The position numbers and the translations under genes are program-made. The notes under the pieces are model-generated. The model did no database searches. It saw only the letters and a list, made by a program, of their open reading frames with translations, and was not told the origin of the DNA. From Gammaproteobacteria bacterium (GTDB taxonomy: Bacteria; Pseudomonadota; Gammaproteobacteria; CAJXQU01), in NCBI GenBank assembly GCA_965238175.1, contig CBDEGZ010000003.1, positions 1,312,001 through 1,376,000 on the forward strand: a stretch of 64,000 nt of DNA, written 5' to 3'. Positions 17,024 to 42,600 of this stretch are shown here, one piece after another (within the stretch, counting starts at the first letter, position 1; the number at the start of each line of letters is the position of its first letter).

Positions 17024-17243
17024 ATGAAAAGTGTAAATATTATTCATCTATTGAAGTTATTAGGATTACTATTATTTGCTATCCCAGGTGCGATTATTGG
17101 TTATAAGTTTGCCCCAGATGCACCTACATACCCAACTCTCCCATCAGAAGATGAGAGGGCATTAATATTTTATATAAATGTGTGGTTGGTTTTACAGTAT
17201 CATTTGTAACAGTTGCGGCAAATTATTTCTTTAAATTGCCAGT
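17024..17243 (+). pseudogene. 5' half of small membrane-protein gene (frameshifted, interrupted by IS4; 3' half at 42498-42600)
   Basis: Hydrophobic ORF from 17024; shifted frame reads VGFTVSFVTVAANYFFKLP up to the IS4 end. Confidence 0.65.
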
Positions 17244-17881
17244 CATTGCTGTCCCGTTAAGAACGAATAAAGTAGGCCTGAACTCCGTCTAATTTGTTAC
17301 AATGAAATCACGACAAGTCATTGAAAAACATAAGGAGAACAGGCCATGGCCGATTGTAATACTATCTTCTCACAAATACTAAAAATGATACCGAGACATG
17401 AGTTTGAGCCCTTGGCAAATCAGCATCACCGTGGTCGTTCGTTTCGAACAGCTTCACGTTGGTCTCAGTTTGTGACACTGGCAATGGCACAATTGTCGGT
17501 TCGAAACAGCTTGCGAGATATTGTCGAGAACCTGTCAGCTCAAGCGCATCGTCTGTATCATTTGGGTAGTGTAAAATTATCTCGCTCCAATTTGTCCCGT
17601 ATCAATGAAGATAAACCTTACACACTTTATGAGGCCTTGTTTGGTAAATTGTTAGCACGTTGTCAGGGGTTAACGCCAGGACAATCTTTCCGTTTTAAAA
17701 ACACATTGTATTCATTGGATGCCTCTACGATTGACCTGTGTTTATCCGTTTTCCCGTGGGCTGACTTTCGTACAACGAAAGGCGCGATAAAGCTGCATGT
17801 TGAATTGAACCATTCAGGTTATTTACCCGAGTTTGTCCCGGTAACGGAAGGGAAAACACATGACGTGACGGTGGGTCGCAC
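17244..17881 (+). mobile_element. IS4-family element, 5' part only (truncated by IS3)
   Basis: Left IR CATTGCTGTCCCGTTAA; apparently identical to 41224-41861; transposase starts at 17346. Confidence 0.9.
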
Positions 17882-17944
17882 TGAACCTGCTACATTTTAA
17901 CGGATACATTAAATAGGCGACAATATGCCTTTAGGAGTATCCAA

Positions 17945-18256
17945 ATGACCAGCAACAGAAAACCATACAAAACCTATACCCGAGAATTCAAACTAGAAGC
18001 GTTACGCTTGATGGAGCAATCAGATAAACCGTCATCTGAGATTGCCGCTGAACTTGGTATACGGCGTAATCAGCTCTATAAATGGAAAGAACAACTGACC
18101 GACAAAGGTGATACTGCATTCCCAGAACAACGTGGAAGGCCTAAGAAAGAAGCACAAAGTGAACTCACCACCTTACGCCAAGATAATGCACGGCTGAAGG
18201 AGGAAGTTGAGATATTAAAAAAGGCCGCGGTGTACTTTGCAGGCGAACTCAAGTGA
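17945..18256 (+). CDS. IS3 transposase OrfA
   Basis: YTREFKLEAL HTH; A6G slippery site at 18217-18223 preceded by GGAGG. Confidence 0.93.
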   Translation: MTSNRKPYKTYTREFKLEALRLMEQSDKPSSEIAAELGIRRNQLYKWKEQLTDKGDTAFPEQRGRPKKEAQSELTTLRQDNARLKEEVEILKKAAVYFAGELK

Positions 18257-19113
18257 AGTACGCCTTTATTAAAATACAACGTCGCCATCACTCTGTGTCG
18301 TTATTATGTCGCACCCTGACTGTCTCAGTCAGTGGTTATTATGATTGGTTAGACAGGCCTCAAAGTAAGACACACTCAACGAATCAACGGTTACTGACGA
18401 AAATAAGATGTTTTCATCAAGCTAGTTTTAAGCGTTATGGTTCACCTCGGATACATCGAGACCTACTCGATTCAGGTGAAAAAGTAAGTCGACCGCGTGT
18501 TGCACGTTTGATGAAGACTGCTGGCATTCAATCGAAGATGGCCAAACGGTTTGTGATTACAACCAATTCAAAAAATACCACAGCACCTGCACCCGATAGG
18601 CTCAAACGTGAATTTCGTGTCAATGAAACAAATAAAGCCTGGGTAGCTGACACGACCTTTATTCGTACTCGGCAAGGTTGGTTATATTTGGCTACCATGA
18701 TGGACTTGTATTCACGGCAAATTATTGGCTGGGCGATGTCTGAGCGTAATGACACCAAGCTAGTCACTGATGCGTTAACGATGTCGCTGTCACGCAGAGA
18801 CAAGGCAAAAGATGTGATTGTCCATTCCGACCAAGGCAGCACTTATGCCTCGGGTGATTATCGAAAGCTCATTAAAGATAATGGCTTCCTTTGTAGTATG
18901 AGCCGAAAAGGTGAATGCCATGATAATGCGGTCGCTGAAAGTTTCTTCGGCAGCCTCAAAACAGAGTTGGTTGATGATGAGGATTATCGAACACGTAGCG
19001 ATGCCAAACAAAGCCTATTTCACTATATTGAAGTGTTTTATAATCGAAGACGGAGGCATTCTTATTTAGGCTATGTTAGCCCTGTAGAATTTGAGCGGGC
19101 AAATGCCCCTTAG
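18253..19113 (+). CDS. IS3 transposase OrfB (DDE)
   Basis: WVADTTF, HSDQGSTY, DNAVAESFF; -1 frame overlap with OrfA. Confidence 0.95.
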   Translation: MKYAFIKIQRRHHSVSLLCRTLTVSVSGYYDWLDRPQSKTHSTNQRLLTKIRCFHQASFKRYGSPRIHRDLLDSGEKVSRPRVARLMKTAGIQSKMAKRFVITTNSKNTTAPAPDRLKREFRVNETNKAWVADTTFIRTRQGWLYLATMMDLYSRQIIGWAMSERNDTKLVTDALTMSLSRRDKAKDVIVHSDQGSTYASGDYRKLIKDNGFLCSMSRKGECHDNAVAESFFGSLKTELVDDEDYRTRSDAKQSLFHYIEVFYNRRRRHSYLGYVSPVEFERANAP

Positions 19114-19161
19114 TTATTTGCTCCGTTAAAGTGTTGCAACCTCAATTCCGGACGGTTTAGT

Positions 19162-20387
19162 TGTAGAAATTCAGATTTGATCTGACAGTTACCCAATTAT
19201 CAGTAACCGACTGTCAGGTTAAGTTTAATTCACAAACTTTTCCTTCCAGATAGCTTGTCCGTCGATGAGTGTTTCCATCGGCGTCCTCCCGCAGCACATT
19301 TTGCCTTGGTGAGTTCGTTGAGTATTGTATTTGAGCAACCATTCGTCAAGGTCGAGTTGCAGTTCATCAATCGATTGGTAAATTTTCTTACGCAAAGCGA
19401 CTTGATAAAACTCATTGAGGATCGTCTTATGGAATCGCTCACAAATACCATTCGTCTGAGGTGATTTGACCTTGGTTTTGGTGTGTTCGATATTGTTCAA
19501 CGCCATATAAAGCTGATAATCATGCTGGTCAGCTCGTCCACAATACTCCGTCCCTCTATCTGTCAAAATGCGCAACATAGGCAAACGTTGTTCTTCGTAG
19601 AATGGGAGGACGCGGTCATTGAGCATGTCAGCTGCCGTAATCGGTGTTTTAGTCGGGTACAGTTTCGCGTGAGCGACCTTGCTGTAAGTATCAACAAACG
19701 TTTGTTGATAAACCCGACCAATGCCTTTGAAAGTACCGACATAGTAAGTATCTTGCGAGCCAAGATAACCAGGGTGTGCCGTCTCTATCTCGCCACAAGC
19801 CTCATCGTCGTCTTTTTTGCGTTCCATCGCCGCGACTTGAGACTCAGTGAGGATCAAGCCTTCACCAGCTACCTTATCAGACAATGCCTTCAGGCGATCT
19901 TTAAAGCAAGCAAGACCATGACGAAGCCAGATACAACGAACGCCACTGGGTGAGACAAATGTTCCCCGTTTGCGCAGCTCGTTACTGGTGCGCGTTTGAC
20001 CATGTGCGGGCTCTTCCAGTGCATACTCGAGCACAACGGTTTCAATAGCCGGGTCGATTCTGTTTTTAAGATTTGGGGTACGCCGATTACGATCAAACAA
20101 GGCTTCTACACCGCCTTCATCAGCCGCTTCTTTGTAGCGATAAAATGTATCTCTGGACAAACCCATCATCTTGCAGGCTTTTGAGACATTGCCGAGTTCT
20201 TCAGCGAGATTGAGTAGACCAACTTTATGTTTTATAACTTTGTCATTAGTATGAATCATGAGAGTTACCTCTTTGTGTTTTGATGTTTACGTTGCAGTTA
20301 CATCAAAGCGGGTAACTCTCACTAAATCAAGCGTCGCTACGCTCCGCTTGATTTAGTGATGTGTCAGATTGGGTCTAAACTTCTACA
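19162..20387 (-). mobile_element. IS481-family element, copy 1 (1226 bp), no target duplication
   Basis: TGTAGAA...TTCTACA termini; 7-nt flanks GTTTAGT/GTTGAAC do not match. Confidence 0.93.
19225..20259 (-). CDS. IS481-family transposase
   Basis: GSQDTYYVG, LTDRGTEYCG, PQTNGICERFHKT. Confidence 0.93.
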   Translation of the reverse strand: MIHTNDKVIKHKVGLLNLAEELGNVSKACKMMGLSRDTFYRYKEAADEGGVEALFDRNRRTPNLKNRIDPAIETVVLEYALEEPAHGQTRTSNELRKRGTFVSPSGVRCIWLRHGLACFKDRLKALSDKVAGEGLILTESQVAAMERKKDDDEACGEIETAHPGYLGSQDTYYVGTFKGIGRVYQQTFVDTYSKVAHAKLYPTKTPITAADMLNDRVLPFYEEQRLPMLRILTDRGTEYCGRADQHDYQLYMALNNIEHTKTKVKSPQTNGICERFHKTILNEFYQVALRKKIYQSIDELQLDLDEWLLKYNTQRTHQGKMCCGRTPMETLIDGQAIWKEKFVN

Positions 20388-21206
20388 GTTGAACAAACTC
20401 TGAACCGTTATCAAACGTCAATGTTTTCACCTTGTCTTTATGAGGGAGCAACAAACGAATAATCGCACGATACACCACGTCTGCTGTTCGACTGTAAACA
20501 CGTGAACAACAGGTAAATAATGAGGCGCGGTCAACGACTGTCACCAAGACACTTTTTTTATCCAAGCCAATCACGGTGTCGCCCTCCCAGTCACCCAGAT
20601 GTTGCTTTTCCTTAACGATCACAGGATGCTCCGTGATGGAAACACGGTTGGGGATCTTGGAAGCTCGTGCACCAGAGCCATAGCGTATACGTCGATGCTT
20701 GTGGCCCTGAGGAAGGTAGTGTTTCAGCGTGGCATGACGTTCAGGATCGTTGTAAATGAAACGGTAGATAGTTTCATGACTAAGTGATACACCATGATGT
20801 TCCTTCAAATAGCCACTGACGTGTTCTGGACTTAAATATTGTTGGATTAAGGACACGATCTTCTGCTCTATTTCAGGATTGAGTTTGCGATATTTATTTT
20901 CATGCCCCCATCGTTTTCTTCGTTGCCATAATTCCATTGCCCAATGGTAGGTATAGATATGTCACTGTGGGTATTTATTTCGTTTGATTTCTCGGCAAAT
21001 CGTGGAAGGAGCTCGACCTAAAGCCACGGCGATTTGTTGTTGTGTTTTTCCTTCGGGTGATGCTTGCCAGATATAAAACCTTTCTTCTTTGACTAAGTGT
21101 TGATACTGTTTCATGGTGCAATTCCTTTTGTTGGGTTAGATTCTTCGTCAAAATTATCTTAACGGCTTTCTGACGTGAGGAATTGTTCTTATTGTATGAA
21201 TGCGCA
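20388..21206 (-). pseudogene. IS30-family element relic (frameshifted, 3' end removed at IS481)
   Basis: ATG at 21114 (MKQYQHLVKEERFYI HTH); downstream frame has SHETIY, GDWEGDTVIG, TLTFDNGSEF. Confidence 0.85.
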
Positions 21207-21253
21207 TCTTGTGATGCTTATAAAAAATTTTAGGAAGGGCTTAGGTAGTTAAA

Positions 21254-22104
21254 ATGTTGAAGAATATTTTCATCTCTGTATTGATTTTTTGGCCATTTTC
21301 CATATTGGCTAATGGCTATACGGAACAGGATAAGTTTATTAAATTTTTGGCGGTCTCTCCTTCTGGAGAATATATCTCATTTAGCTCTGCATCTTATAAT
21401 ATTGATGGGCATTATTTTGACGTATATCTTAATATACTGGATACGAGCGTAGGGGATATAAAAACAAAGAAGTTATTCTCTAAGATAGATGGGCATCAGG
21501 CACAAGGAAAGCTGGTTTGGGGGTATTGGGCAAACGATAAAGAATTTTATGCGGGCGGCGGTCACAGTTATGAAACATGTTATCAAATGATCTTCTCTTC
21601 TGGAGATTATGTTGAAGAAATAGATGAATCAAAAACTACTTGCCATGGGGCGGTAGAATCTGCAAATAATGAATTCTATGATATAGCTCCCAGAAAATAT
21701 AATTTGCTATATTCTTATGCTAGTTCAGAGGGGATAGGGATTTTTTATATATTTGATCTGAATAATAATAACATTATTCTTAAAGCAACAGGTGTAGGTA
21801 TAGGCTCACTTGATGCTAGCTGCCCTCCAAGCCGTTTTTTGAGCCATGATTTAAATATCATAGACTATAGCGAAAGCGGAGATAAATTTACCTGAAAACG
21901 AGAATCAATCCCGTAGATATTAATAGATATACCAATATTATTGAAGGAGATCTAGGGCTGTTTCCATGTTACTACGCTATGAGCAATGCCATTGCAAAAC
22001 ATGTGTTGAACAATGAGGAACCAGAAAAGATGAGCCCTGAGTTATTTGCCAAAGTACAGGCAGATGTTGAGGAAAAAATGATTCAAAATTTGGTGGAGCC
22101 CTAG
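21254..22104 (+). pseudogene. Secreted hypothetical protein, probably frameshifted near 21893
   Basis: Signal-peptide ORF 21254-21895; an open frame continues (KTRINPVDINRY...LVEP*) to 22104 after a 1-bp shift. Confidence 0.5.
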
Positions 22105-22183
22105 CCCTATACTTATAAAGTCATAAGCAGGGATACTAAAGCCTCCCGCCATTAATCTGTAACGTAATTCGTTCGCCCTGAAC

Positions 22184-22365
22184 TGTAGTGGTCTAATAAT
22201 TTTGAACAAATCTCAAGGGCTATACTAATGAACCGAAGACAACGCGTGAATTTTTCAACCGAGCAGAAAATTAGAATATGCTAAGTTGATGGTCAACGAA
22301 GGTTATGCCAATCAACGAATCAGATCTCTCTGGAGCAGGTTCAGGTTCAACCGCCGTATCTTGAG
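22184..22365 (+). mobile_element. Relic of a second IS3-family element (left IR plus decayed orfA)
   Basis: TGTAGTGGTCTAATAATTTTGAACA end; MNRRQRVNFSTEQK/LEYAKLMVNEGY from 22228. Confidence 0.65.
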
Positions 22366-22370
22366 GAGAT

Positions 22371-23387
22371 TTAAGAGTTTCTGTCGACGGCAAAATCGGC
22401 TAGGGTAGTCAGGGCTGCTTTATAAGGCGAAGGAGGTAAGTCTTTCAGGCTTTCAACAGCTTTTGTTGATTCAAGTCTTGCACAGTTTGTTGTATAAGCG
22501 AGTGCCCCTGTTTCTTCTATAGCAGTCATAACCTCTTCAATTTGATCCCGGCCACCTGTTTCGATGGCTTTTTTGATCAGTTTATTTTGAGACTTGGTAC
22601 CGTTCCACATGGCATAAAGGAGTGGTAAAGTTGGTTTGCCTTCTGCCAGATCGTCACCGACATTTTTACCTAATTCGTCAACGTCTGAACTATAGTCCAG
22701 AACATCATCAACCAGTTGAAAAGCGGTGCCGAGATGGCGGCCAAAGCGTGCAGCATTTTCTTCTCGTTTTTTGTTTGAATCGCAGATCACCGCACCAAGG
22801 CGCGTTGCAGCTTCAAATAATTTAGCGGTTTTATGGCGAATTGTTTCCAGATAACGTTGTTCTGTGGTGTCAGGGTCATTGCAATTGATCAGTTGCATGA
22901 CTTCACCTTCTGCAATGGTATTTGTTGTATCTGCAAGCACAGACATAACTTGCATATTTTTCATGCTCACCATCATTTGAAATGAACGCGAATAGAGAAA
23001 GTCTCCAACCAGCACACTGGCCTCATTTCCCCAAATTTCATTGGCTGTTTTTCGGCCACGTCGCATTGCTGAATCGTCAACCACATCATCATGTAGCAAT
23101 GTGGCTGTGTGAATAAACTCGATGATTGCTGCGATGTTGAGGTGGTTAGTACCGTGATAACCATGCACACGAGCACTGAGTAGCGCCAGAATTGGTCGGA
23201 GACGTTTGCCGCCACTATTGACTATGTAATGGCCTAACTGGTTTATCAGAGCAACTTCAGAATAAAGGCTCTCATGAATGAGCCGATTGACGCTGTTCAT
23301 ATCATCCGAAATCAGATCACGAATATCATCTATCGTTTTTATCTCTACTTGTTCGTGAAGTGGTATTAAGTTCATCATGATGGCCAT
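22371..23387 (-). CDS. ispB: Octaprenyl diphosphate synthase
   Basis: GGKRLRP, HDDVVD, FQLVDDVLD; divergent from rplU. Confidence 0.96.
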   Translation of the reverse strand: MAIMMNLIPLHEQVEIKTIDDIRDLISDDMNSVNRLIHESLYSEVALINQLGHYIVNSGGKRLRPILALLSARVHGYHGTNHLNIAAIIEFIHTATLLHDDVVDDSAMRRGRKTANEIWGNEASVLVGDFLYSRSFQMMVSMKNMQVMSVLADTTNTIAEGEVMQLINCNDPDTTEQRYLETIRHKTAKLFEAATRLGAVICDSNKKREENAARFGRHLGTAFQLVDDVLDYSSDVDELGKNVGDDLAEGKPTLPLLYAMWNGTKSQNKLIKKAIETGGRDQIEEVMTAIEETGALAYTTNCARLESTKAVESLKDLPPSPYKAALTTLADFAVDRNS

Positions 23388-23535
23388 TCTGCCAAGATGT
23401 TGGATGACATGCCATACTTTTGCACTTTTTTGTCATTGAATGGCTTTGTTGCCTTGTAACAGAAGGGTTTATTCCGTAAAATTACCCGGCTTTGATTTAG
23501 ACATTACATTTCAGTCAGTTTGGGAGCTAGTTCAC

Positions 23536-24189
23536 ATGTACGCAGTAATAAAGACGGGCGGAAAACAATATAAGGTCAGCGAAGGGGATATTCTCCGCGT
23601 TGAAAAACTGGATGCTGAAGAAGGCGCCACTGTTGAGTTGGGTGATGTTTTGATGCTTGGTGATGAGAGCGACATTCAGGTCGGCGCACCGATGATTGAA
23701 GGGGCTCATGTATCAGCGACCGTTAAATCGCAAGGTCGTGGTAAGAAAGTGACTATCATCAAATTCAAACGCCGCAAGCATCATCGTAAGCAGATGGGAC
23801 ACCGGCAGTCTTTCACTGAGCTTGAAATTACCGGCGTTTCAGTAACAGGTGGCACAAAAAAAGCTGCTCCAGCAAAAGCAGTGGCGAAGCCTGCGGCTAA
23901 GAAAGCAGCACCTGAAAAATCAACAGCTACAACTAGTTTCCTGAGTGCACCAGATGGCGAAGCCGATGATTTGAAACTGATTTCAGGTGTTGGTCCGAAA
24001 CTTGAAGAAAAATTAAATGCATTTGGTATTTATCATTTCCATCAAATTGCTAACTTCACTGCAGAAGATATTTTGAAAGTAGATGAAGGTTTAAACTTCA
24101 AAGGCCGAATTGAACGAGATGACTGGTTAAGCCAGGCAAAAATTCTGGCTGACGGTGGCGAAACTGAATTCAGTAAGAAAAAGAAATAA
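23536..24189 (+). CDS. rplU: 50S ribosomal protein L21 with C-terminal extension
   Basis: [14 protein letters not shown]...GHRQSFT; real ATG at 23536; Ala/Lys linker plus [14 protein letters not shown] domain. Confidence 0.96.
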
Positions 24190-24206
24190 TTTTGGAGAAT
24201 AGTTAA

Positions 24207-24470
24207 ATGGCTCATAAGAAAGCAGGTGGTAGTACACGCAACGGTCGCGATTCGGAGTCGAAACGACTTGGTGTAAAACGCTTTGGTGGTGAAATGGTTA
24301 AAGCCGGTAATATTTTGCTCAGACAACGCGGAACACGTGTTCACCCTGGGGTAAATGTAGGAATAGGCCGAGACCACACGCTTTTCGCCAAAGAAGACGG
24401 AACCGTAAAGTTTGAAGTTAAAGGTATAAAAAATCGTACTTTTATCAGTGTGACACCAGCTTCTGCATAA
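24207..24470 (+). CDS. rpmA: 50S ribosomal protein L27
   Basis: [16 protein letters not shown]. Confidence 0.99.
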
Positions 24471-24496
24471 GCGGTTCACATAAAATCTGTATGTGG

Positions 24497-24525
24497 AAAC
24501 CCCGTCTTGTGCGGGGTTTTTTTTT
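24497..24525 (+). terminator. Intrinsic terminator after rpmA
   Basis: AAACCCCG-loop-CGGGG followed by 9 T. Confidence 0.85.
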
Positions 24526-24543
24526 GCCACCTAAATAACATAA

Positions 24544-25599
<1,056 letters not shown>

Positions 25600-25669
25600 A
25601 TAAACGAATAATAGAGCAGTTAAATCAACATCAAAATAATCACAAATTTAATTAATAGATGTAATCGAC

Positions 25670-26794
25670 ATGGCCGTAAGTTCCCGACAAGATCTTTCTA
25701 AAACTCGCCGCTGGGTGATCAAGATAGGCAGTGCACTTGCGACCAATGACGGTAGTGGTTTGCGCTTGGAGTCCATAGACAAATGGGTGTCTCAAGCAGC
25801 CGAGCAAATAAAAAAAGGTACCGAAGTTATTTTTGTCACCTCTGGTTCTGTGGCGGAAGGTATTTCTCGATTGGGTATGCAAGGTAGACCTTCTTCGCTA
25901 CACGAATTACAGGCAGCAGCAGCAGTGGGGCAAATGGGGCTGGTTCAAGCCTACGAAACCTGCTTTCAACGTTATGGTATAAAAACTGCACAAGTGTTAT
26001 TAACTCACCTCGATCTAGCGCATCGCAAACGTTATCTCAATGCACGTAGTACCTTAAAAACTTTAATCGATTTGAAGGTGGTGCCAGTCGTTAATGAAAA
26101 TGACACCGTCGCAACCGATGAAATTCGTTTTGGAGATAACGATACTTTGGCCGCATTAGTCGCGAATCTAATCGATGCTGATTTGCTGGTGATTTTGACC
26201 GATCAACAAGGTTTATATAGTGCTGATCCAAGATCAAACCCTGATGCTTATTTGATTTCTGAAGGAAAAGCAGGCGATCAAAAACTCGAAGCGATGGCTG
26301 GAGAAGGTGGAAAATTAGGCCGTGGAGGTATGCGTACTAAACTTACCGCAGCATCACATGCGGCCAATTCGGGTACCGCAACAATAATTGTTTCGGGCAA
26401 TGAAGATCAAATTCTTGAGAAAATCACCAATGGTGAAGAGGTTGGAACCTTACTACTGCCTGATCAAGAACCAATTATTGCTAGAAAACGTTGGTTAGCA
26501 GGCGGTTTACAAGTAAAAGGAAAATTAATTCTTGATGACGGAGCAGTAAAAGTTTTGCAACAAAAAGGACGAAGTTTATTAGCTGTCGGCGTAAAAGATA
26601 TTGAAGGTAATTTTGATCGGGGTGAACTGGTGATCTGTGTTTCATCTTCGGGAGACGAGATCGCAAGAGGTATGAGTAATTATTCTGTAGCGGAGACAAA
26701 GAAAATTATCGGCAAAGCTAGCGATCAGTTTGAATCGATATTAGGTTATTGCGGAGATTCTGAACTAATTCACAGAGATAATATGGTGGTTTAG
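25670..26794 (+). CDS. proB: Glutamate 5-kinase
   Basis: VIKIGS, NENDTV, FGDNDTL, C-terminal PUA domain. Confidence 0.97.
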   Translation: MAVSSRQDLSKTRRWVIKIGSALATNDGSGLRLESIDKWVSQAAEQIKKGTEVIFVTSGSVAEGISRLGMQGRPSSLHELQAAAAVGQMGLVQAYETCFQRYGIKTAQVLLTHLDLAHRKRYLNARSTLKTLIDLKVVPVVNENDTVATDEIRFGDNDTLAALVANLIDADLLVILTDQQGLYSADPRSNPDAYLISEGKAGDQKLEAMAGEGGKLGRGGMRTKLTAASHAANSGTATIIVSGNEDQILEKITNGEEVGTLLLPDQEPIIARKRWLAGGLQVKGKLILDDGAVKVLQQKGRSLLAVGVKDIEGNFDRGELVICVSSSGDEIARGMSNYSVAETKKIIGKASDQFESILGYCGDSELIHRDNMVV

Positions 26795-26851
26795 TAATAA
26801 AGGGCGAAGCTTAATATCCAGATGAATAGTAAGCTTTATATAGTTAGGCAT

Positions 26852-26888
26852 AAAAAATCCCCGGCTCATAACAACAAGCCGGGGATTT
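26852..26888 (-). terminator. Intrinsic terminator of rpsT (between convergent proB and rpsT)
   Basis: AAAAAATCCCCGGCT...AGCCGGGGATTT hairpin. Confidence 0.85.
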
Positions 26889-26898
26889 GATGTGAACC

Positions 26899-31892: not shown

Positions 31893-31910
31893 AATTTTTT
31901 TATTTTTAAT

Positions 31911-32036: not shown

Positions 32037-32045
32037 TGTGTTTTT

Positions 32046-32639: not shown

Positions 32640-32657
32640 AAATTTTATTTATTCTGA

Positions 32658-32794
32658 TTGCTGCTAACATCTCGTCCATGAGCAGTTGCGTAGATTAGCA
32701 GTTAACTTTTTAGATATACCTCGAATTAAAAATTTTGCAACACTTTTCAAAATAAGCAAGAACAAGCAGTTATTTATGACCATTGTGAGCCAAT
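32658..32794 (-). repeat. attC-like cassette spacer
   Basis: Minus strand: TGGCTCAC-AATGGTCATAAATAACTGC...GCAACTGCTCATGGACGAGAT-GTTAGCA; imperfect ~135-bp palindrome. Confidence 0.55.
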
Positions 32795-32803
32795 ATTTCC
32801 CCA

Positions 32804-33122
32804 TTATCCTCCTTGTCCATTTTCAAGATTAATGGAAAAATAATACGATGCAAAAAAAGACAGCCCAATAAATATAAAGTATAAAAGCAAAATTTTAAAA
32901 CCTTTCTTTTGTTTCAAAAATAGCCAAAAGAAGTTCAGAGTAAAAAAAGCAATTTATTATAAATAACACTGGATACATTATTGATTTTAAAAACTGCTCA
33001 AACTCTGTAAGATGCCCATCAGGGAAACCAAGTATTTTATAATCTGTATAAATTATTACTCCAAAACCTACGGTTAAAATTAGTCCAAATAAAGCCATGG
33101 GTCTTTTTAGTTTATTTTCCAA
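32804..33122 (-). pseudogene. Frameshifted small membrane protein
   Basis: ORF 32895-33122 (LGFPDGHLTE) continues in another frame to ...FSINLENGQGG* at 32804. Confidence 0.6.
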
Positions 33123-33129
33123 CTCTTTT

Positions 33130-33408
33130 TTACTCCCATGACTGGTAGTTAATATATGAATTCATTCCTATAGGTTTAAAGGTGAAGTATTCCTTCGCAC
33201 TCCCAATTCTTTTTCCCAAATACATCCTTCCATATCGACTTGGTCTATATGCAAATAAATTACTTGCTAAACTTGAGACAGAGCCATAACCATCAGAACT
33301 ATTTTCAAAGATCTGAAATCTAAATCTACAAATTGGGGTTTCTCCATTCCAGCCAATGCGCATTGGAACAAACCAAATCCAACTAAATCCAATAATTAGA
33401 ATTGACAC
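33130..33408 (-). CDS. Hypothetical protein (possibly 5'-truncated)
   Basis: 92-aa ORF co-oriented in the array. Confidence 0.45.
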   Translation of the reverse strand: MSILIIGFSWIWFVPMRIGWNGETPICRFRFQIFENSSDGYGSVSSLASNLFAYRPSRYGRMYLGKRIGSAKEYFTFKPIGMNSYINYQSWE

Positions 33409-33422
33409 AATTACTTTTGCTT

Positions 33423-33860
33423 TTAATTACGATCTCTATGGGTTATAGCAACTTGATATTCTTTATATCCTTTTTCAAAGGCTTCATCACTAAATAAAGC
33501 AATATATTTTGTCAGATCCAATTTAATACCACTCAGTTTTAATCGAGGTGAATTAAGTCTTTTTAGAGTGTTATTGACCATTTTAAATAGTCCGCCTCTT
33601 TCGCTCCGTACTTTATTTTTGATTTCGATTCCTTCTTTTGATAGGCGCATATTTGTTCCTTTTATTTCAATCAACCCCTTAGTGATTAATTTTTTGAATC
33701 CTTGTCGAAGTTCTTCAGGAAGGAAAATGGCGTGATTTACCATATCTCCTGCAGCAATAATTTGCGACAGGTCTATGGGCTTAAAACTAGTGCCATAATC
33801 CATGATGGCAACAAAAAACCATGCGTCACTTCGGTCAAAATACGTCGGGCTATCAGTCAT
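33423..33860 (-). CDS. Hypothetical protein, winged-helix-like
   Basis: SDAWFF, IIAAGDMVNHAI..EELRQG..KL...GLI. Confidence 0.65.
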   Translation of the reverse strand: MTDSPTYFDRSDAWFFVAIMDYGTSFKPIDLSQIIAAGDMVNHAIFLPEELRQGFKKLITKGLIEIKGTNMRLSKEGIEIKNKVRSERGGLFKMVNNTLKRLNSPRLKLSGIKLDLTKYIALFSDEAFEKGYKEYQVAITHRDRN

Positions 33861-33878
33861 TTCTTAATTATTTAGTTT

Positions 33879-34499
33879 TCATCCATAACCGTTGGTAAGC
33901 AATAGATGTAATTCGTCATCTGCTTTAAAGGCTAAGGCTAAATCTCGGCCACCGTTTTCAAAATACCCCAAAACAGTGTAGCCAGATCTTTCATCTTCTC
34001 CTACCGTGTTTAGAAAATCAGGTTTTATGTTGTAGGCTTGCCAATTTTCATCCATTATATCCAGCATATCAATCAGATCTGTTGCCAGTTTTTCAGCTTC
34101 ATCTTTTGGCAGTGTTTTCACTGTTGAGTGGGTACTGGAAAAAACTTTTTTTCCACCAATAAGAATGTCGGTCAACAACTCGATTACCTGCACTTTTGTG
34201 GGTTGTTTAATGGTAAACCCCGTATTGCCATTCCATATGTTTCCAGGCCTTTGTAATAAAACTGGGATAGGTGGTTCTTGCAGGTCTGAAAAAATTAACT
34301 GTGAATAGTGTGTCCAACCTCGTTCAACATCTTGTTTAACGATCTCATAATGAAAACTCCCAGTTTTCAGGTGTTGAATTAATGTTCTTGTGATGTCAAA
34401 TTCCTCATCTTCAAGAATATCCAAAGTGATCCAAAAGGTATTGGAATTGACGACGGTGTCTAGTTCATCTAAAAGTTTATTTCTTAATTTTCGATCCAT
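33879..34499 (-). CDS. Hypothetical protein
   Basis: 206-aa ORF co-oriented in the array. Confidence 0.65.
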   Translation of the reverse strand: MDRKLRNKLLDELDTVVNSNTFWITLDILEDEEFDITRTLIQHLKTGSFHYEIVKQDVERGWTHYSQLIFSDLQEPPIPVLLQRPGNIWNGNTGFTIKQPTKVQVIELLTDILIGGKKVFSSTHSTVKTLPKDEAEKLATDLIDMLDIMDENWQAYNIKPDFLNTVGEDERSGYTVLGYFENGGRDLALAFKADDELHLLLTNGYG

Positions 34500-34543
34500 A
34501 ATTTGACTAGGTTTTAATTTCTGATTTGTGAAAAAAATAAAAG

Positions 34544-34870
34544 TTAATTCTTTTCCGGAAATCTTGGTAAATCGCCCATATAGGGATATTCAACACCTTC
34601 GTGTTCTTTAATTAGTTTAAATTCTTCTAGTTTTCCATCATTCAAAACGGCTTGCGCATGAAAGCCAGTGTCACACTTTTGACATACGGTGTAGGCCTCT
34701 CCAAACTGAATTCCCTCAGGGGTAAAATGCGTATAGCGAAAATCTATCTCATCACCGATTTTATAGTTTATTACATCTAAATAGCCAAAATACATTTGAA
34801 ATTCTACCAGGGTCGTTTTCTCACATTTTGGATAAATTATCTTTTCATAAGTGTAGTTGTACATTCCCAT
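34544..34870 (-). CDS. Hypothetical protein (MGMY-start, Cys pair)
   Basis: 108-aa ORF. Confidence 0.6.
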   Translation of the reverse strand: MGMYNYTYEKIIYPKCEKTTLVEFQMYFGYLDVINYKIGDEIDFRYTHFTPEGIQFGEAYTVCQKCDTGFHAQAVLNDGKLEEFKLIKEHEGVEYPYMGDLPRFPEKN

Positions 34871-35027
34871 ATAACTTAAACCCTTAATTGTACGTTTATT
34901 TTACTTCTGATTTATTAGGCCAATCATAATATTTTTTTAAATATTTCTTTCATTTAGAATGTTTCTTCAAATAAGACCCAACATATTCTTATAAGATTCT
35001 TTGTTTTTCATACGCTAATTTCAAACA

Positions 35028-35411
35028 TTAATTATCTTCTTTCATCACTTCTTCGATTTTTGCTATAAAACTTAACCACTTTAGCCGTCTCTTGCATTGC
35101 GGACAAAATTTATCTTTCTCCAACGATGGTTTTTCAATCAATTTAACTATTTCAAAATCATAGTAGTCTATTCGAGTGCGATCTTTAAAACCAAACGCTT
35201 CTGGGCGATATGCACCAAAATCGACAGCACAAAAATTACATAACTGTAATTCTAACCCCTTGTAAACTTTGTAAATGCTATAGCTATGCTGCCCTTCTTT
35301 GAAGTGTTCAATCTCATGTTCAAAATTGCCACAATCATGACAGGGCGCACAACTAATTACTATCAATTCGGAATAGCATATAGGACATTGTTCTTTGTTC
35401 TTCGGTTTCAT
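35028..35411 (-). CDS. Cys-rich hypothetical protein (four CxxC)
   Basis: CPIC, CHDC, CNFC, CPQC; decayed paralog at 48286-48650. Confidence 0.7.
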   Translation of the reverse strand: MKPKNKEQCPICYSELIVISCAPCHDCGNFEHEIEHFKEGQHSYSIYKVYKGLELQLCNFCAVDFGAYRPEAFGFKDRTRIDYYDFEIVKLIEKPSLEKDKFCPQCKRRLKWLSFIAKIEEVMKEDN

Positions 35412-35494
35412 CTTCGGGTTTTGATTTTTCTAAATCATCAAAATATCTGATTTTAAATAAACTGTTCTACTTGAAATGAATTCTGGATTGTTGC

Positions 35495-36295
35495 TCAGTT
35501 CTTTTCAATTTCATACCACCATAACGAGTATTCCTGTTCCGTTTTATTATGGGATTTAGTTACAGCATCTTGAAAACCTGAAAGCCCAACTTCTCCTTTA
35601 TCAACATTCAAGGTCGGTGTAGTGCTTTGTTTTACCAATTCTTTCATTTTAGCAATTACTTCAGGTCTGTTTCTTTCTTCTTCGTTGATACAATCTGAGT
35701 AATCCAATGAAAATAATTTTTCTATATCTTCCTTGTTGGCTTGAATGTATGTTGGAAAGGAATAATAAAAAAAATCCTTGGTGTATAAAGAGTTCTTATC
35801 AGGGGTTACTAATTGCCTCCCCCCATCATCACTAACATCAAATAGATAAGCATCTGAAAGACTTCCTGGGGCTATTGAGAGGGTAAAATCTGTGACTTTA
35901 CTGTCTTTACTTCGAATACAACTTTCAAGCTTTTCACGCCATATTTTTTTAAATTCGAATTCCCCTCCCTTCATCCATTTATTATATTCCATGTCATTCA
36001 TAGTCACTATTTTTTCACGTCCTGTACTATCTATCTCCCTGGTAACGGCTACGGCTATACTCGGAAAATAAATTCTAAAGCGAGACATCTTGTTATCAGG
36101 AGCGAAAGTTGGGAGCGTTAAAAAAATATTTTTTGCATTTTTTAAGGAATCAATTTTTTCTTCTATTTTACTTCTAATACCAATTATATCTTTCTGTTTA
36201 ACTGGAACGGCATGATCGGCTAAAGTGCCTATGTCAAAACTTTTGAGTAACGCAAATGTTTGGTTTTTAATTAATACATTATTCTTATAGAGGCT
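35495..36295 (-). pseudogene. Hypothetical protein, 5' end removed by IS3
   Basis: Frame of ORF 35495-36088 appears to stay open upstream to the IS3 boundary. Confidence 0.55.
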
Positions 36296-37558
36296 TGAGG
36301 TTGCAACACTTTAACGGAGCAAATAACTAAGGGGCATTTGCCCGCTCAAATTCTACAGGGCTAACATAGCCTAAATAAGAATGCCTCCGTCTTCGATTAT
36401 AAAACACTTCAATATAGTGAAATAGGCTTTGTTTGGCATCGCTACGTGTTCGATAATCCTCATCATCAACCAACTCTGTTTTGAGGCTGCCGAAGAAACT
36501 TTCAGCGACCGCATTATCATGGCATTCACCTTTTCGGCTCATACTACAAAGGAAGCCATTATCTTTAATGAGCTTTCGATAATCACCCGAGGCATAAGTG
36601 CTGCCTTGGTCGGAATGGACAATCACATCTTTTGCCTTGTCTCTGCGTGACAGCGACATCGTTAACGCATCAGTGACTAGCTTGGTGTCATTACGCTCAG
36701 ACATCGCCCAGCCAATAATTTGCCGTGAATACAAGTCCATCATGGTAGCCAAATATAACCAACCTTGCCGAGTACGAATAAAGGTCGTGTCAGCTACCCA
36801 GGCTTTATTTGTTTCATTGACACGAAATTCACGTTTGAGCCTATCGGGTGCAGGTGCTGTGGTATTTTTTGAATTGGTTGTAATCACAAACCGTTTGGCC
36901 ATCTTCGATTGAATGCCAGCAGTCTTCATCAAACGTGCAACACGCGGTCGACTTACTTTTTCACCTGAATCGAGTAGGTCTCGATGTATCCGAGGTGAAC
37001 CATAACGCTTAAAACTAGCTTGATGAAAACATCTTATTTTCGTCAGTAACCGTTGATTCGTTGAGTGTGTCTTACTTTGAGGCCTGTCTAACCAATCATA
37101 ATAACCACTGACTGAGACAGTCAGGGTGCGACATAATAACGACACAGAGTGATGGCGACGTTGTATTTTAATAAAGGCGTACTTCACTTGAGTTCGCCTG
37201 CAAAGTACACCGCGGCCTTTTTTAATATCTCAACTTCCTCCTTCAGCCGTGCATTATCTTGGCGTAAGGTGGTGAGTTCACTTTGTGCTTCTTTCTTAGG
37301 CCTTCCACGTTGTTCTGGGAATGCAGTATCACCTTTGTCGGTCAGTTGTTCTTTCCATTTATAGAGCTGATTACGCCGTATACCAAGTTCAGCGGCAATC
37401 TCAGATGACGGTTTATCTGATTGCTCCATCAAGCGTAACGCTTCTAGTTTGAATTCTCGGGTATAGGTTTTGTATGGTTTTCTGTTGCTGGTCATTTGGA
37501 TACTCCTAAAGGCATATTGTCGCCTATTTAATGTATCCGTTAAAATGTAGCAGGTTCA
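36296..37558 (-). mobile_element. IS3-family element, copy 2 (1263 bp), no target duplication
   Basis: Same ends and ORFs (36327-37187, 37184-37495) as copy 1. Confidence 0.95.
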
Positions 37559-37907: not shown

Positions 37908-37939
37908 AAATAAGTGACTTTTAAAACAGCTATAAGCAA

Positions 37940-38532
37940 ATGAAAAACCCACACAGAACAGATATTCAACAGCTTATTTTAATGCTGGGGCCCGCACTGA
38001 TTTTTGGTAGCGTACTGCTTATTAAAGCGTTTTATTTTATAGATGATTTCACTAAATATGCACTACTTTTATCATTATCACTGGCCCCTTAACCCTCTAT
38101 GCTTTAATCCTGCTTTACAATCGGTTCAAGTTGAAGTTTATTGGAATCATTGTTCTCAATATCCTGATCATGATCGGATATTTCAAAGGGATATCAGCTA
38201 TGCTTTACTCTCCTAGCCCTAATATGGGAGGAGCTGCCTTAGGGGCTTTCCTATTATTTGGTGCTGTTGTGATTCATTTTATAATCTTTGCGTATTTTGT
38301 TTGGTTTTTTAGAAGGAAAAAACGAAAATCAAAAGACATAAAAGAGGATTTAACCGACTTTCCTTTAGTGAAGGTTGTAATTCCAAAGGGGATTTCATTG
38401 GCTTTTATTATCCTGTTTTTTTATTTACGCTCTGTCAGATTTTATGAAGGTATTAAACTGATTTTATTTTCATTTCCAAAATGCTACAGGGTTTATCACT
38501 TGCGAAAATCGCAGTTAAAATCAACGTTATAA
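37940..38532 (+). pseudogene. Frameshifted membrane protein
   Basis: ATG 37940 (MKNPHRT...SLAP*) joins ORF 38131-38532 if one base is added in the C run near 38085. Confidence 0.55.
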
Positions 38533-38634
38533 ATTTAACTCTTTAGCAAGGTTGAAAAGTTGGAATTATGCTTTGCTTGACACTTATGAGTTGACATATA
38601 ATTTGTAAAACAGAATTTTTTAAATGCATATAAA

Positions 38635-40479
38635 ATGAAAGAATTTTTTAAACTTAACAACATCGAAGTTGGTTTTGCCAACCATTCCGAAGTTTCTATT
38701 CAGAAAGGGAAGTTGAGTATTAACCTGCTTACGCCCAATTTAAAAATAACTCCGGAGCTTCATAACGGAATGTTAGACAGTGAAGAAGTGAACGTAGACT
38801 ATATTAGCTATGCAACAAGTTTGGCTATACCTGAAGGGAAATACAACACCCAGCTCGACTGCCCAGAAGACACCCCAAACGCAAACGTTTTTAATTTTCC
38901 GGAAAATGTTAATTTTTATGGTGTTCTTGATGTTCAAGAAGGGTATATACATCTAAAAGGTGAGTTAAGAAGCCGATATAGTCGTCGAACTATCCCCGTA
39001 GAAATAGTAAAGCAGTTTGATCCCAAACCCTTAATTCCTCCAAGAACCAGATTTAATTTAGGCGATGCAAAAATACAAGAGCCTCTAGAAGTCTATGAAT
39101 TAATCGTTCGGAAAGGCCGTCTAAATGAATTCCCAATGGAGATTTTAGCCTTTGAGAACTTGGAGAGTTTAGAGATTGAAGTTTCGTCCTGGCAGGGAGA
39201 CAAAAGCAGTGATTTTTCAGAAATCCCAGAAGCACTTTTTGAGTTAAAAAATCTACATACGCTATCCATTTCGGGAAGTAACATTAAAACACTTTCAGAA
39301 AAAGTAAGTGCACTCACAAAACTAGAAGAACTTCGTCTCTGCTACACTCAATTAAAAAGCCTACCCAATTCGCTATGTGATCTAAAGCGGTTACAATATT
39401 TGTCGTTGGACTGTAACGAGCTGGTTTCGCTGCCCGAAAATATCGGTTATCTTCCTGATTTAGAAGATCTCAGAATTGGATATAATCCGTTTACCTCATT
39501 ACCAAAATCGCTTACAGAAATTTCCAATATTAATCTTGAAGGGAAGCATAAAAAACTATTTTTAGATACTGCTTACAAAAGCAAGAATAAAAACGAAATA
39601 AATGAAAGTTTATTTAACCTGTTTAATCATCCCACACACAAAACTGCATTAGAAAAGGCTATACAAACAACGCCAGAATTAAAGAATTACAAAGATTTTT
39701 TATTGAATTGCAGCACACTAGCCACCTGTTTGGTGCCTGGAGATAAGCAAAAAGTAATTTCTGTTGGCGCTTCAAAAACCGGCGGAAGTCCAGATTTACC
39801 AAAAGGCTGGAAGCATCCCGCTGATCAAAATGGCAATTTTTATCTTTTTCATACGCAGATAAATTGCGAAGAAATAGGTCCTTATCAAAACTATCTGCCG
39901 AGAAAAGGGATGTTATACTTCTTTGTGAGTGACGAAGAATATGTCGAAGAGCCTTTGGTATTGTACTCAGAAGATGAAAACTTAGTCCGCATCCACTACA
40001 ACGAAGAAACAACATTTGTATTTTGTGATGACGTAGATGATGATGAATATAGAAACGAATTAGCCGTCAGCTTTCGAAACCATATATCTATTCCCGAATT
40101 TTATAACATCAAAAAAAATGCAACTGAAAGATTTCCGAAATATGCTCAATTCCTAAAAGATCAAGCAACACGTGACTTAGAAAACTTGAGGAATTTTGAT
40201 CAATTTGAACAATTCAATAAACACATTGATTTACTCCCTATTGATGGTGAACGAATGCATAGCATCAACAGTTTCGTCTTCACACAAGGTGAAACCCCAC
40301 AAGAACAAGCGGCAGACAAATTTGGCGGCGAGCCAACGGAATGGCTTGTGCTACTCAACATGGAAACTACGGGGGAGTTTATGTTTGGGGATGCAGGTAC
40401 ACTAACGTATTGCATGCATAAAAAAGACCTGGAAATTAAAGATTTTTCTAGAATTTATGCCAGCATAGAAAGTGGCTGA
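38635..40479 (+). CDS. Leucine-rich-repeat protein fused to a DUF1963/YwqG domain
   Basis: LKNLHTLSI, LTKLEELRL, LKRLQYLSL, LPDLEDLRI; GASKTGGSPDLP, FMFGDAGTL. Confidence 0.85.
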   Translation: MKEFFKLNNIEVGFANHSEVSIQKGKLSINLLTPNLKITPELHNGMLDSEEVNVDYISYATSLAIPEGKYNTQLDCPEDTPNANVFNFPENVNFYGVLDVQEGYIHLKGELRSRYSRRTIPVEIVKQFDPKPLIPPRTRFNLGDAKIQEPLEVYELIVRKGRLNEFPMEILAFENLESLEIEVSSWQGDKSSDFSEIPEALFELKNLHTLSISGSNIKTLSEKVSALTKLEELRLCYTQLKSLPNSLCDLKRLQYLSLDCNELVSLPENIGYLPDLEDLRIGYNPFTSLPKSLTEISNINLEGKHKKLFLDTAYKSKNKNEINESLFNLFNHPTHKTALEKAIQTTPELKNYKDFLLNCSTLATCLVPGDKQKVISVGASKTGGSPDLPKGWKHPADQNGNFYLFHTQINCEEIGPYQNYLPRKGMLYFFVSDEEYVEEPLVLYSEDENLVRIHYNEETTFVFCDDVDDDEYRNELAVSFRNHISIPEFYNIKKNATERFPKYAQFLKDQATRDLENLRNFDQFEQFNKHIDLLPIDGERMHSINSFVFTQGETPQEQAADKFGGEPTEWLVLLNMETTGEFMFGDAGTLTYCMHKKDLEIKDFSRIYASIESG

Positions 40480-40505
40480 AAAAACTACTTCTTTAAAGAT
40501 AAACA

Positions 40506-41008
40506 ATGAAAAAAGCGAATATCAATTCAATTCCTGCGCTTATCAATTGGTTTGGGGTTAAGTAAATCGAACTGTATGACTACTATGATTCCTAGCTTCA
40601 GATTACATTAATTATTTTTGATGCTTTTGAAAAGTTGGTTGCTCTGCTAGTTGAGGCCCATTCAGCGAATGAGGTGCGATATTACAAGATTAAACAACTT
40701 TAGGAATTAGTATTGGAAATGTGCAGAGTGATCTGTTTGGTGGTTTTCAGAAGACTAGACAGAGTTTTGAGTTGTTGGCAGAGAACAGAATAGATTTTAT
40801 CAAAGCAGAAAAAGTTGAAGCGGGAGATGAAGTTCATTTCATCATTAACTTTAGGGGTTCTCCTATTATCGAGTATTTAGCCTTTCTTGAAGTTGATGGA
40901 GAGCTTTGCTTTCAGATACGATTAGCTCTATTTAACTATGAAGACGTAGATTTATTGAAGAAACTCGAAAGCATAAGACGGAAAATAAGGAAACTGAAGG
41001 TTGAATAA
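40506..41008 (+). pseudogene. Decayed hypothetical gene
   Basis: MKKANINSIP start with in-frame stops, residual ORF 40721-41008. Confidence 0.4.
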
Positions 41009-41223
41009 TAGCTCCATGCTATCAAAAACAGCTCAAATTCAACGCTTATAAACTCGCCCCCTCATTTATCAAATGGTTTTAGTAAAATGAATTGATTGAA
41101 TTAGTATTGAATTATAAATAAATGAAACCAATAAATTATTCATTAAAAGAAACTTAAAAAAACATATATTTTATAATTAGCCACTATAGAGAAATGAGCG
41201 CAAAGGAATCTTATTAATTATTA

Positions 41224-42497
41224 CATTGCTGTCCCGTTAAGAACGAATAAAGTAGGCCTGAACTCCGTCTAATTTGTTACAATGAAATCACGACAAGTCA
41301 TTGAAAAACATAAGGAGAACAGGCCATGGCCGATTGTAATACTATCTTCTCACAAATACTAAAAATGATACCGAGACATGAGTTTGAGCCCTTGGCAAAT
41401 CAGCATCACCGTGGTCGTTCGTTTCGAACAGCTTCACGTTGGTCTCAGTTTGTGACACTGGCAATGGCACAATTGTCGGTTCGAAACAGCTTGCGAGATA
41501 TTGTCGAGAACCTGTCAGCTCAAGCGCATCGTCTGTATCATTTGGGTAGTGTAAAATTATCTCGCTCCAATTTGTCCCGTATCAATGAAGATAAACCTTA
41601 CACACTTTATGAGGCCTTGTTTGGTAAATTGTTAGCACGTTGTCAGGGGTTAACGCCAGGACAATCTTTCCGTTTTAAAAACACATTGTATTCATTGGAT
41701 GCCTCTACGATTGACCTGTGTTTATCCGTTTTCCCGTGGGCTGACTTTCGTACAACGAAAGGCGCGATAAAGCTGCATGTTGAATTGAACCATTCAGGTT
41801 ATTTACCCGAGTTTGTCCCGGTAACGGAAGGGAAAACACATGACGTGACGGTGGGTCGCACACTGTCTTTTCCCAAGGGAAGTATTGTCGCTATTGATAG
41901 AGCGTACAATGACGATGCCTGGTATAAGCAATTGACAGACAAGGGGATATTCTTTGTAACGCGCCTCAAAACGCATGCTAAATATCGTGTGATAGGTCGG
42001 AGCGATGTTTTGAAAAGCAAAGGACTGACGTGTGACCAAACCATTGAATTCACCGGGTTCCAAACCGCAAAAAAATGCCCTGCTCAGTTACGTCGTATTG
42101 GTTATCGTGACCCGAAAACAGGGAAACACGATGTGTTTCTCACCAATAATTTTACACTTGCAGCGAAAACGATTGCTGATATTTATAAAGCACGTTGGCA
42201 AGTGTAATTATTTTTTAAATGGATAAAACAAAACCTTAAAATCAAATCATTCATCGGCACAAGTAAGAATGCGGTGATGACACAGGTATGGATAGCAATG
42301 TGCATTTACTTACTGATGGTATTCATCAAATTTCAGTCCAGACTCAAGAAGAGCATGCAACAAATCTTACGTGTATTGCAACGTAATCTCTTTGATAAAC
42401 GGTCGTTGTTAGCGTTGTTGCAAGACGACCCGTTACCCGATGAGATAAATACAGTTCAGCAATTGGTATTGGTTTGAAAGTTAACGGGACAGCAGTG
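41224..42497 (+). mobile_element. IS4-family element, full length (1274 bp), transposase inactivated
   Basis: IRs CATTGCTGTCCCGTTAA / TTAACGGGACAGCAGTG. Confidence 0.93.
41326..42477 (+). pseudogene. IS4 transposase with nonsense codon at the catalytic Glu
   Basis: YKARWQV*LFFKWIKQN: TAA at 42205-42207 replaces the E of the Y-R-E-K signature; frame continues to 42477. Confidence 0.9.
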
Positions 42498-42600
42498 ATT
42501 GCCAGATATAAACTCTTTTCTTGTTACAGTGTTTACCGGTGTTCTAATGTTTGTAGAATATACAATTAGATTTGGCTTGCTTTCCAGTAATAACCTTTAA
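42498..42600 (+). pseudogene. 3' half of the membrane-protein gene begun at 17024
   Basis: ATTGCCAGA target-duplication copy, then LPDINSFLVTVFTGVLMFVEYTIRFGLLSSNNL*. Confidence 0.65.

Follow-up and report, generated by a model that had tools for sequence, protein, structure and literature searches.

Probable relocation of a 24-kb ispB-to-murJ block by recombination among three copies of an IS4-family element

Organization of the IS4-bounded block

The window analyzed here is a 64,000-nt stretch of the chromosome of a gammaproteobacterium (own genome, G000; chromosome contig, C3). At positions 17244-42497 of the window, two copies of an IS4-family insertion sequence (IS) in the same direction enclose 24 kb. 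Five further IS copies, strain-specific genes, and a native core cluster extending from ispB to murJ make up a mosaic between the IS4 ends. An earlier note, made from the sequence alone, regarded this region as a block of essential genes inserted into one small gene, either by a composite-transposon move or by IS4-IS4 recombination. The features on which the following argument depends are listed below in window coordinates.

16992..17010, no strand: left arm of an imperfect 19-bp inverted repeat that brackets a small unit; 17/19 complementary to 42794-42812
17024..17209, plus strand: orphan hydrophobic open reading frame (ORF) of 61 amino acids (aa) with an ATG start; stops 34 bp before the IS4 end; unique in its own genome
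17235..17243, plus strand: left copy of the target duplication, ATTGCCAGT; read directly, with the 9-bp size taken from related elements
17244..17881, plus strand: IS4-family stump, element positions 1-638; 100% identical to 41224-41861; ends where an IS3-family element starts
22371..29410, plus strand: native core cluster, ispB (minus), rplU, rpmA, obg, proB, rpsT (minus), murJ, and a thioredoxin-like gene; Pfam
41224..42497, plus strand: full-length IS4-family element, 1274 bp; transposase frame broken by TAA at 42205-42207
42498..42506, plus strand: right copy of the target duplication, ATTGCCAGA; read directly
42507..42600, plus strand: continuation of the hydrophobic frame to a stop codon, rejoined by coordinates
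42794..42812, no strand: right arm of the inverted repeat; same pairing, 17/19

IspB, L21, L27, Obg, ProB, S20, and MurJ were assigned by Pfam, which confirms the gene content given in the earlier note. The core cluster is present as a single copy in G000. It is collinear in all six congeners (G002, G004, G005, and G006 among them), which were compared in 20-kb pieces, and in the five congeners searched for the strain-specific parts of the block it stands without these flanks. The GC skew is positive across the core cluster (23-28 kb), as in its present surroundings.

A split 9-bp duplication at the outer ends

The left junction (17243|17244) reads ...AAATTGCCAGT|CATTGCTGTCCCGTTAAG, and the right junction (42497|42498) reads ...AACGGGACAGCAGTG|ATTGCCAGATATAAAC. 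The nonamers outside the two ends, ATTGCCAGT and ATTGCCAGA, are identical at eight of nine positions, and the flanks of the full-length copy itself, TAATTATTA and ATTGCCAGA, agree at only one of nine. The flanks are therefore exchanged, with the left flank of one copy pairing with the right flank of the other. Direct rereading of the junctions bore out the earlier observations on the outer flanks and on the unmatched flanks of the full-length copy. The placement of an IS4 copy at each end stands as far as both end junctions are concerned, but the left copy is only a stump (positions 1-638) cut by an IS3-family element.

The length of the duplication was examined with transposase relatives at 80 loci of public genomes, among which both ends and flanks were located in 65, all in other genomes. 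The duplication is perfect (9/9) in 44 of these 65 related full-length elements and matches at six or fewer positions in the other 21, with no element at seven or eight. Two more related IS4 cases outside this set also have a 9-bp duplication. Since this IS type makes 9-bp duplications and no relative falls at seven or eight matches, the 8/9 agreement marks one insertion event. The 19-bp inverted repeat (16992-17010 and 42794-42812), which had also been pointed out previously, pairs at 17/19 positions and exceeds all 60 shuffles (maximum 16). The 8/9 match and the bracketing inverted repeat indicate that both flanks were once contiguous as one unit of approximately 560 bp. The outer ends thus show one transposase-mediated insertion, with its 9-bp duplication, into this small unit.

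When the two junctions alone are considered, the simplest reading is a composite transposon, in which the transposase acts on the outer ends and the whole 25 kb is inserted with a 9-bp duplication. Both outer ends (17244 and 42497) are indeed present, and the 8/9 duplication lies around the whole block. The state of the element and its third copy bear on this reading, as described below.

Three IS4 copies and an inactivated transposase

The genome holds exactly three IS4 copies, 100% identical to one another, which cover element positions 1-638, 1-1274, and 155-1274. The third copy (155-1274) is located at C3:2862681-2863800 on the opposite strand. The two partial copies share positions 155-638; if a full IS4 and an internal fragment of positions 155-638 underwent a reciprocal crossover, copies of 1-638 and 155-1274 would be the expected products. 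The other matches to the element in the genome are only a stretch at C3:1644120-1644890 (64% identity) and one 57-nt match.

Pfam assigns PF01609 (DDE_Tnp_1, 8e-20) and PF14294 (DUF4372, 5.5e-29) to 41326-42207, that is, a DDE_Tnp_1-type transposase as in the IS4 family. An intact homologue (397 aa, G008) reads ...YKARWQVELFFKWIK... and has the Y-2-R-3-E-6-K motif with its glutamate, whereas the window transposase reads ...YKARWQV*LFFKWIK, in which the catalytic glutamate codon is TAA. This TAA is common to both copies that span the site (41224-42497 and C3:2862681-2863800). Terminal inverted repeats are present, with ends CATTGCTGTCCCGTTAA / TTAACGGGACAGCAGTG, and the fixed-length duplication is here matched at 8/9. 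The left terminal tip is CAT, in contrast to the consensus CAC; the exact end CACTGCTGTCCC is found in 57 of the 65 relatives, and the other eight also start with CAC. The CAT tip is shared by both IS4 copies that have a left end.

The element resembles the IS4-family members with an N-terminal DUF4372 in its domain composition (DDE_Tnp_1 and DUF4372), its length (1271-1279 bp in this group), its 9-bp duplication, and its ends, CA(C)TGCTGTCCC. It differs in that the copies are inactivated, while the Y-2-R-3-E-6-K motif is kept in intact relatives. The element may fit the 'IS4Sa' subgroup. It can no longer transpose on its own. The shared TAA and CAT tip suggest either that the copies spread by recombination or with help in trans, or that gene conversion homogenized them. 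Close relatives occur in other, mostly gammaproteobacterial, metagenome-assembled genome records, as judged by their titles. The element was not found in any of the six congeners, so the rearrangement events would be recent.

Chromosomal positions of the IS4 copies

The location of the third copy should be noted. In G005, ispB directly adjoins the orthologue of C3:2869654-2869947, and the third IS4 copy lies 5.9 kb from C3:2869654. With dnaA at 442772-444109 and the cumulative skew maximum near 2.10 Mb, the IS4 copies of the window are approximately 885 and 910 kb clockwise of dnaA, and the third copy is approximately 912 kb counter-clockwise, on the other replichore; these distances are uncertain by approximately 20 kb, because the C3 sequence breaks off within an IS481-type copy and two small contigs have no assigned place. 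The IS4 positions are mirrored about dnaA within approximately 1% of the chromosome.

Taken with the state of the element, these positions make the composite transposon very improbable. No working transposase was found, since the TAA occupies the catalytic glutamate codon in both copies bearing that site and the left copy lacks positions 639-1274; the left tip, CAT, also departs from the consensus. No movement as a unit is apparent either, because the apparent donor locus holds a recombinant IS4 and not a scar. The interior is a mosaic of recombinant IS copies, and the IS4 element was not found in the congeners, as described above. The complementary third copy, its proximity to the ispB neighbor, and the mirror position are left unexplained by a composite transposon. 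The first alternative of the earlier note is accordingly not supported, on account of the dead transposase, the CAT tip, the stump, and the third copy as a reciprocal product.

Recombination between IS copies is common in this genome, as judged from the IS481-type element (1226 bp, 7-bp duplication). Its duplication is intact in 39 of 57 full copies and missing in 18, and six left-flank/right-flank matches tie together pairs among these 18. Of the roughly nine genomic copies of the IS3 element (1263 bp, 3-bp duplication), the three inside or at the edge of the block region, all without a duplication, are evidently recombinant.

Recombination among the three IS4 copies

We propose that the 24 kb probably arrived through two reciprocal homologous-recombination events among three IS4 copies. 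The starting event, which the sequence shows, is the entry of one 1274-bp IS4 (X), with its 9-bp duplication, into the small strain-specific unit just after pepN. At that time the block would have occupied a site on the opposite replichore, at a distance of approximately 1.5 Mb, with a full IS4 (Y) on one side and an internal fragment of positions 155-638 (Z') on the other. It would have consisted of an IS3/IS481 module, the ispB-to-murJ cluster, and the strain-specific genes, beside the ispB neighbors of the G005 type. First, X would have recombined with Y, and then the hybrid formed in this step would have recombined with Z'. Both steps were most likely successive inversions, near-symmetric about the replication origin. 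The net result would be the block at pepN with its orientation relative to replication kept and the remaining chromosome as before. The expected products are a 1-638 copy at pepN, a full copy with a foreign left flank and the right flank of the small unit, and a 155-1274 copy at the old locus.

The two events were reversed in silico by coordinates, which leaves the chromosome length unchanged. The stump was first recombined with the third copy, and the full copy formed in this way was then recombined with the one at 41224. In the reversed chromosome, pepN is followed without interruption by the small unit, which holds a single full IS4 between ATTGCCAGT and ATTGCCAGA, and then by the aminotransferase gene. 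At 2.84-2.86 Mb, the reversal yields a full IS4, the strain-specific genes, the core cluster reversed, the IS module, and the 155-638 fragment. The ispB gene is then placed 10.9 kb from C3:2869654 in the same orientation as in G005. Two IS4 recombinations would thus account for the duplication being split, for the truncation of both partial copies, for where the third copy lies, and for the relocation with orientation kept, the last of which fits the positive skew over 23-28 kb. Both exchanged flanks and reciprocal products in the same genome (1-638 and 155-1274, in inverted orientation) are found. The second alternative of the earlier note, IS4-IS4 recombination, is the best explanation on the grounds of the flanks, the third copy, and the reversal, and the claimed relocation of essential chromosomal genes is supported for the core cluster. 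The insertion itself probably involved one IS4 element and not the whole 25 kb.

The same three copies and junctions would also be produced by a different route, which the sequence cannot separate from two inversions. In this route, recombination between the direct repeats of Y and Z' releases a 24-kb circle (IS4 1-638 and the block), leaving the 155-1274 copy, and homologous recombination then brings the circle into the IS4 of the small unit, probably on a sister chromosome. Run backwards, this route is the excision for which the 638-bp direct repeats now allow; as had been suggested previously, these repeats could release a circle, of 23,980 bp, carrying single-copy genes. The circle is nevertheless a fragile intermediate, in which single-copy core genes would be without an evident origin. 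Moreover, near-mirror loci about dnaA are predicted by inversions but not by the circle. The mirror symmetry favors two inversions, as far as such positions can tell, and we consider the circle route unlikely.

A related view is that the block is still cycling, as a circle with the single-copy ribosomal-protein, obg, and murJ genes that re-enters at any IS4 copy. We regard this as improbable. If it were true, essential genes would form a recombination-driven translocatable cassette that changes replichore within the population.

Several observations weigh against recombination among the three copies as reconstructed above. The flanks of the precursor copy Y, TAATTATTA / ATTGGTACT, agree at 0/9, and earlier events are therefore needed. 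The reversal restores the ispB side as in G005 only; on this side, G004 and G006 have orthologues of C3:3101890-3115447, and G002 has orphans. The murJ side is not restored. In G004, G005, and G006, the thioredoxin-like gene is directly followed by a cluster with a 943-aa ORF, and in G000 this cluster lies at C3:1237720 onward, 94 kb upstream, so that the core cluster has lost at least one ancestral neighbor. The reconstruction does not explain why an IS3-spacer-IS481 module is present at both loci (see below). No intermediate genome was seen, and the crossover points are hidden by the identity of the IS4 copies. The uncertainty of approximately 20 kb stated above applies to the mirror positions. 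Finally, the assembly across the 638-bp repeat was examined only with the short-word contigs of two read runs, X1 and X2, which end at repeats. These runs are from one sample, possibly the source of the assembly itself.

These contig ends lead to the question of an assembly artefact, in which the 638-bp repeat is misresolved and the small unit holds a plain IS4 while the 24 kb lies elsewhere. The four repeat-edge junctions fit both resolutions. The listed X1/X2 pieces extend into IS4 by 30 nt on the left side (37777-41253) and, on the right side, to 42501, 4 nt past the end; none of those listed gives a long-range bridge, and 199 further pieces are outside this listing. However, under the other resolution the ribosomal-protein, obg, and murJ genes, each present once, would sit on a free 24-kb circle, a condition that could not plausibly be stable. 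That the chromosome contig crosses 57 full IS copies of 1.2 kb each suggests that the reads exceeded 638 bp in length. The depth of the core-cluster contig in run X1 is 5.9, against 6.3-8.3 for its neighbors. We find an artefact barely credible. The run depths fit approximately 70 IS481-type, approximately 8 IS3, and 2-3 IS4 copies.

Comparison with known systems

Inversions between IS copies are known from IS481 in Bordetella pertussis and from Yersinia pestis. Passages of streptococcal and Salmonella studies (PMC11602124, PMC9783417) describe inversions about the replication axis via inverted IS copies; passages of a repeat-positioning study (PMC9297083) treat the same theme, and those of PMC12863080 also concern IS-mediated recombination about this axis. 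The present locus agrees with such inversions in its inverted identical IS copies at near-mirror positions, the exchanged flanking duplications, the kept gene orientation relative to replication, and the many further recombinant IS copies in the genome. It differs in that two events with slightly different end points amount to a 24-kb translocation with no visible inversion, and in that one partner is an internal IS fragment, leaving complementary truncated copies. Among the papers listed by a literature search, none has the phrase "two successive inversions".

Composite transposons of the IS4 family are represented by Tn10/IS10 and Tn5/IS50. A direct IS4-family pair around cargo and a 9-bp duplication outside are common to these and the present locus. 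Here, in contrast, one copy is reduced to a stump of 638 bp and the transposase bears a nonsense mutation; native core genes and five other IS copies make up the cargo, and a reciprocal recombination product lies elsewhere in the genome. Circular DNA is integrated by recombination between IS copies when the F plasmid forms Hfr strains. The arrangement of target, IS, inserted DNA, IS, and target, with the original duplication split to the outside, is the same, but the inserted DNA is here chromosomal and contains essential genes, and no replication or transfer functions were found in the block by Pfam, the only search applied.

Recombination of IS copies about the replication axis is already well known, and this locus adds a clear new case, the footprint of which can be read unusually well. 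No new mechanism is opened; the process is ordinary repeat-driven genome shuffling. A duplication split over 25 kb mimics a composite transposon, and it is the third complementary copy and the mirror position that point to plain homologous recombination. Annotators should be cautious not to call such structures transposons. If the proposed events are correct, a core cluster (L21, L27, Obg, ProB, S20, MurJ, and IspB) can switch replichore with its origin distance and orientation kept, which fits the known selection on bacterial chromosome layout.

The small frame at the insertion site

Removal of 17244-42506 by coordinates gives a stop-to-stop frame of 60 codons, ...CVVGFTVSFVTVAANYFFKLP(D/V)INSFLVTVFTGVLMFVEYTIRFGLLSSNNL*, with a mean hydropathy of 1.11. 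A continuous hydrophobic frame after the deletion had been described in the earlier note, and the 60-codon frame agrees with it. However, the frame running across the rejoined junction is not that of the ATG-started ORF (17024-17209). Because this ORF ends 34 bp before the IS in another frame, a single small gene needs an extra frameshift. An open 31-codon continuation also arises by chance in 461 of 5000 shuffles, so that the rejoined open frame is weak evidence alone.

The 61-aa ORF has no Pfam family, and a search of 5.8 billion proteins within a length range of 33-107 aa found only itself. Neither half of the small unit has a DNA match in 40 other genomes, six of which are the congeners, and there is no second copy of the unit in G000. 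Homology ends at 16982 and starts again at approximately 43171. The empty site was searched with a 28-nt unchanged stretch of the left half, which gave 0 matches in metagenome_contigs, a collection that may omit records near G000. The "small gene" is at best an orphan, frameshifted membrane-protein relic.

Patchwork between the IS4 ends

Apart from IS4, the IS-derived sequences of the block are two copies of the IS3 element, two of the IS481-type element, a fragment from the IS481 family, and a remnant from the IS3 family. The parts of the block other than those listed above are as follows.

17882..19144, plus strand: IS3-family copy, 1263 bp, which cuts IS4; orfA/orfB by Pfam; flanks CAC/ATT unmatched
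19145..19161, plus strand: 17-bp spacer between the IS3 and IS481-type copies; identical spacer in a second module
19162..20387, plus strand: IS481-type copy, 1226 bp; HTH_29 and rve_3 by Pfam; flanks GTTTAGT/GTTGAAC unmatched
20388..22370, no strand: strain-specific filler with an IS481-family transposase fragment (20383-20937, minus) and an orphan 213-aa ORF
29411-29584 and 30825-31040: degenerate IS3-family remnant, split by an IS481-type copy
29592..30817, minus strand: IS481-type copy with an intact 7-bp duplication, GATTAAT, at 29585-29591 and 30818-30824
30825..36295, minus strand: strain-specific genes (5.5 kb), a DUF1963 protein and small orphans; negative GC skew
36296..37558, minus strand: IS3-family copy, inverted; flanks unmatched
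37908..41223, plus strand: strain-specific genes (3.3 kb), including an LRR and DUF1963 protein (38635-40479); ends with TAATTATTA at the IS4 left end

The different flanks of the IS3 copy at 17882-19144 (CAC/ATT) and of the IS481-type copy at 19162-20387 (GTTTAGT/GTTGAAC) show that both are recombinant. The IS481-type copy at 29592-30817 is, judging from its flanks, a simple later insertion into the IS3-family remnant. The module of IS3, 17-bp spacer, and IS481-type copy (17882-20387) is repeated at G000:C3:2849759-2852264 over 2506 bp with 99.92% identity, and none of the four outer flanks of this pair forms a duplication. The second module is 10.4 kb from the third IS4 copy, with a strain-specific island between them. 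Except for IS copies, no paralogy was found between the strain-specific genes of the block and this island. When the right half of the small unit was compared with the sequence flanking the third IS4 copy on its right, the score was 20, against a shuffle maximum of 34. The strain-specific parts of the block (30829-41223) were not found in the five congeners searched, and positions 16000-44000 contain no Rfam family and no tRNA.

Two local flips were also considered. A flip of the core cluster between the inverted IS481-type copies (19162-20387 and 29592-30817) was ruled out by the intact 7-bp duplication of the second copy, and a flip between the two inverted IS3 copies was ruled out because no pairing was found between their flanks.

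A perfect 247-bp tandem duplication at 37414-37907 comprises the first 145 bp of the inverted IS3 copy and 102 bp of its flank. Inverted 460-bp paralogous stretches at 35022-35481 and 48215-48656 (88% identity) are each near an IS3 copy, which points to a small gene family in strain-specific regions. A repeat of approximately 166 bp (42807-42972 and 45651-45816, 88% identity), with further short matches in G002 and G006, may be a small dispersed element.

Genomic surroundings and minor observations

The intergenic DNA between the thioredoxin-like gene and its old neighbor is too diverged for an exact breakpoint, and the contigs of G002, the closest congener, break at points relevant to the history of the rearrangement. 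At the junction of two ancestral neighborhoods, the intergenic segment C3:1237095-1237719 contains a unit of approximately 270 bp with long terminal inverted repeats, resembling a miniature element. To the right of IS4, the class-V aminotransferase gene (43402-44793) has a neighborhood that differs among G002, G005, and G006. The gene is isolated in G006, within a stretch that is conserved apart from it and that in G000 is contiguous at C3:2.68 Mb.

An IS110-type element of 1361 bp has more than 20 copies in the genome, and one small contig has a G+C content of 55.8% versus 40% for the chromosome. L21 (23536-24189) has a C-terminal extension of approximately 115 aa, made up of an Ala/Lys/Pro-rich linker and a folded-looking tail, the Pfam L21 domain being limited to residues 1-101. 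The congeners align over 209-228 aa, and the extension seems to be conserved in the genus.

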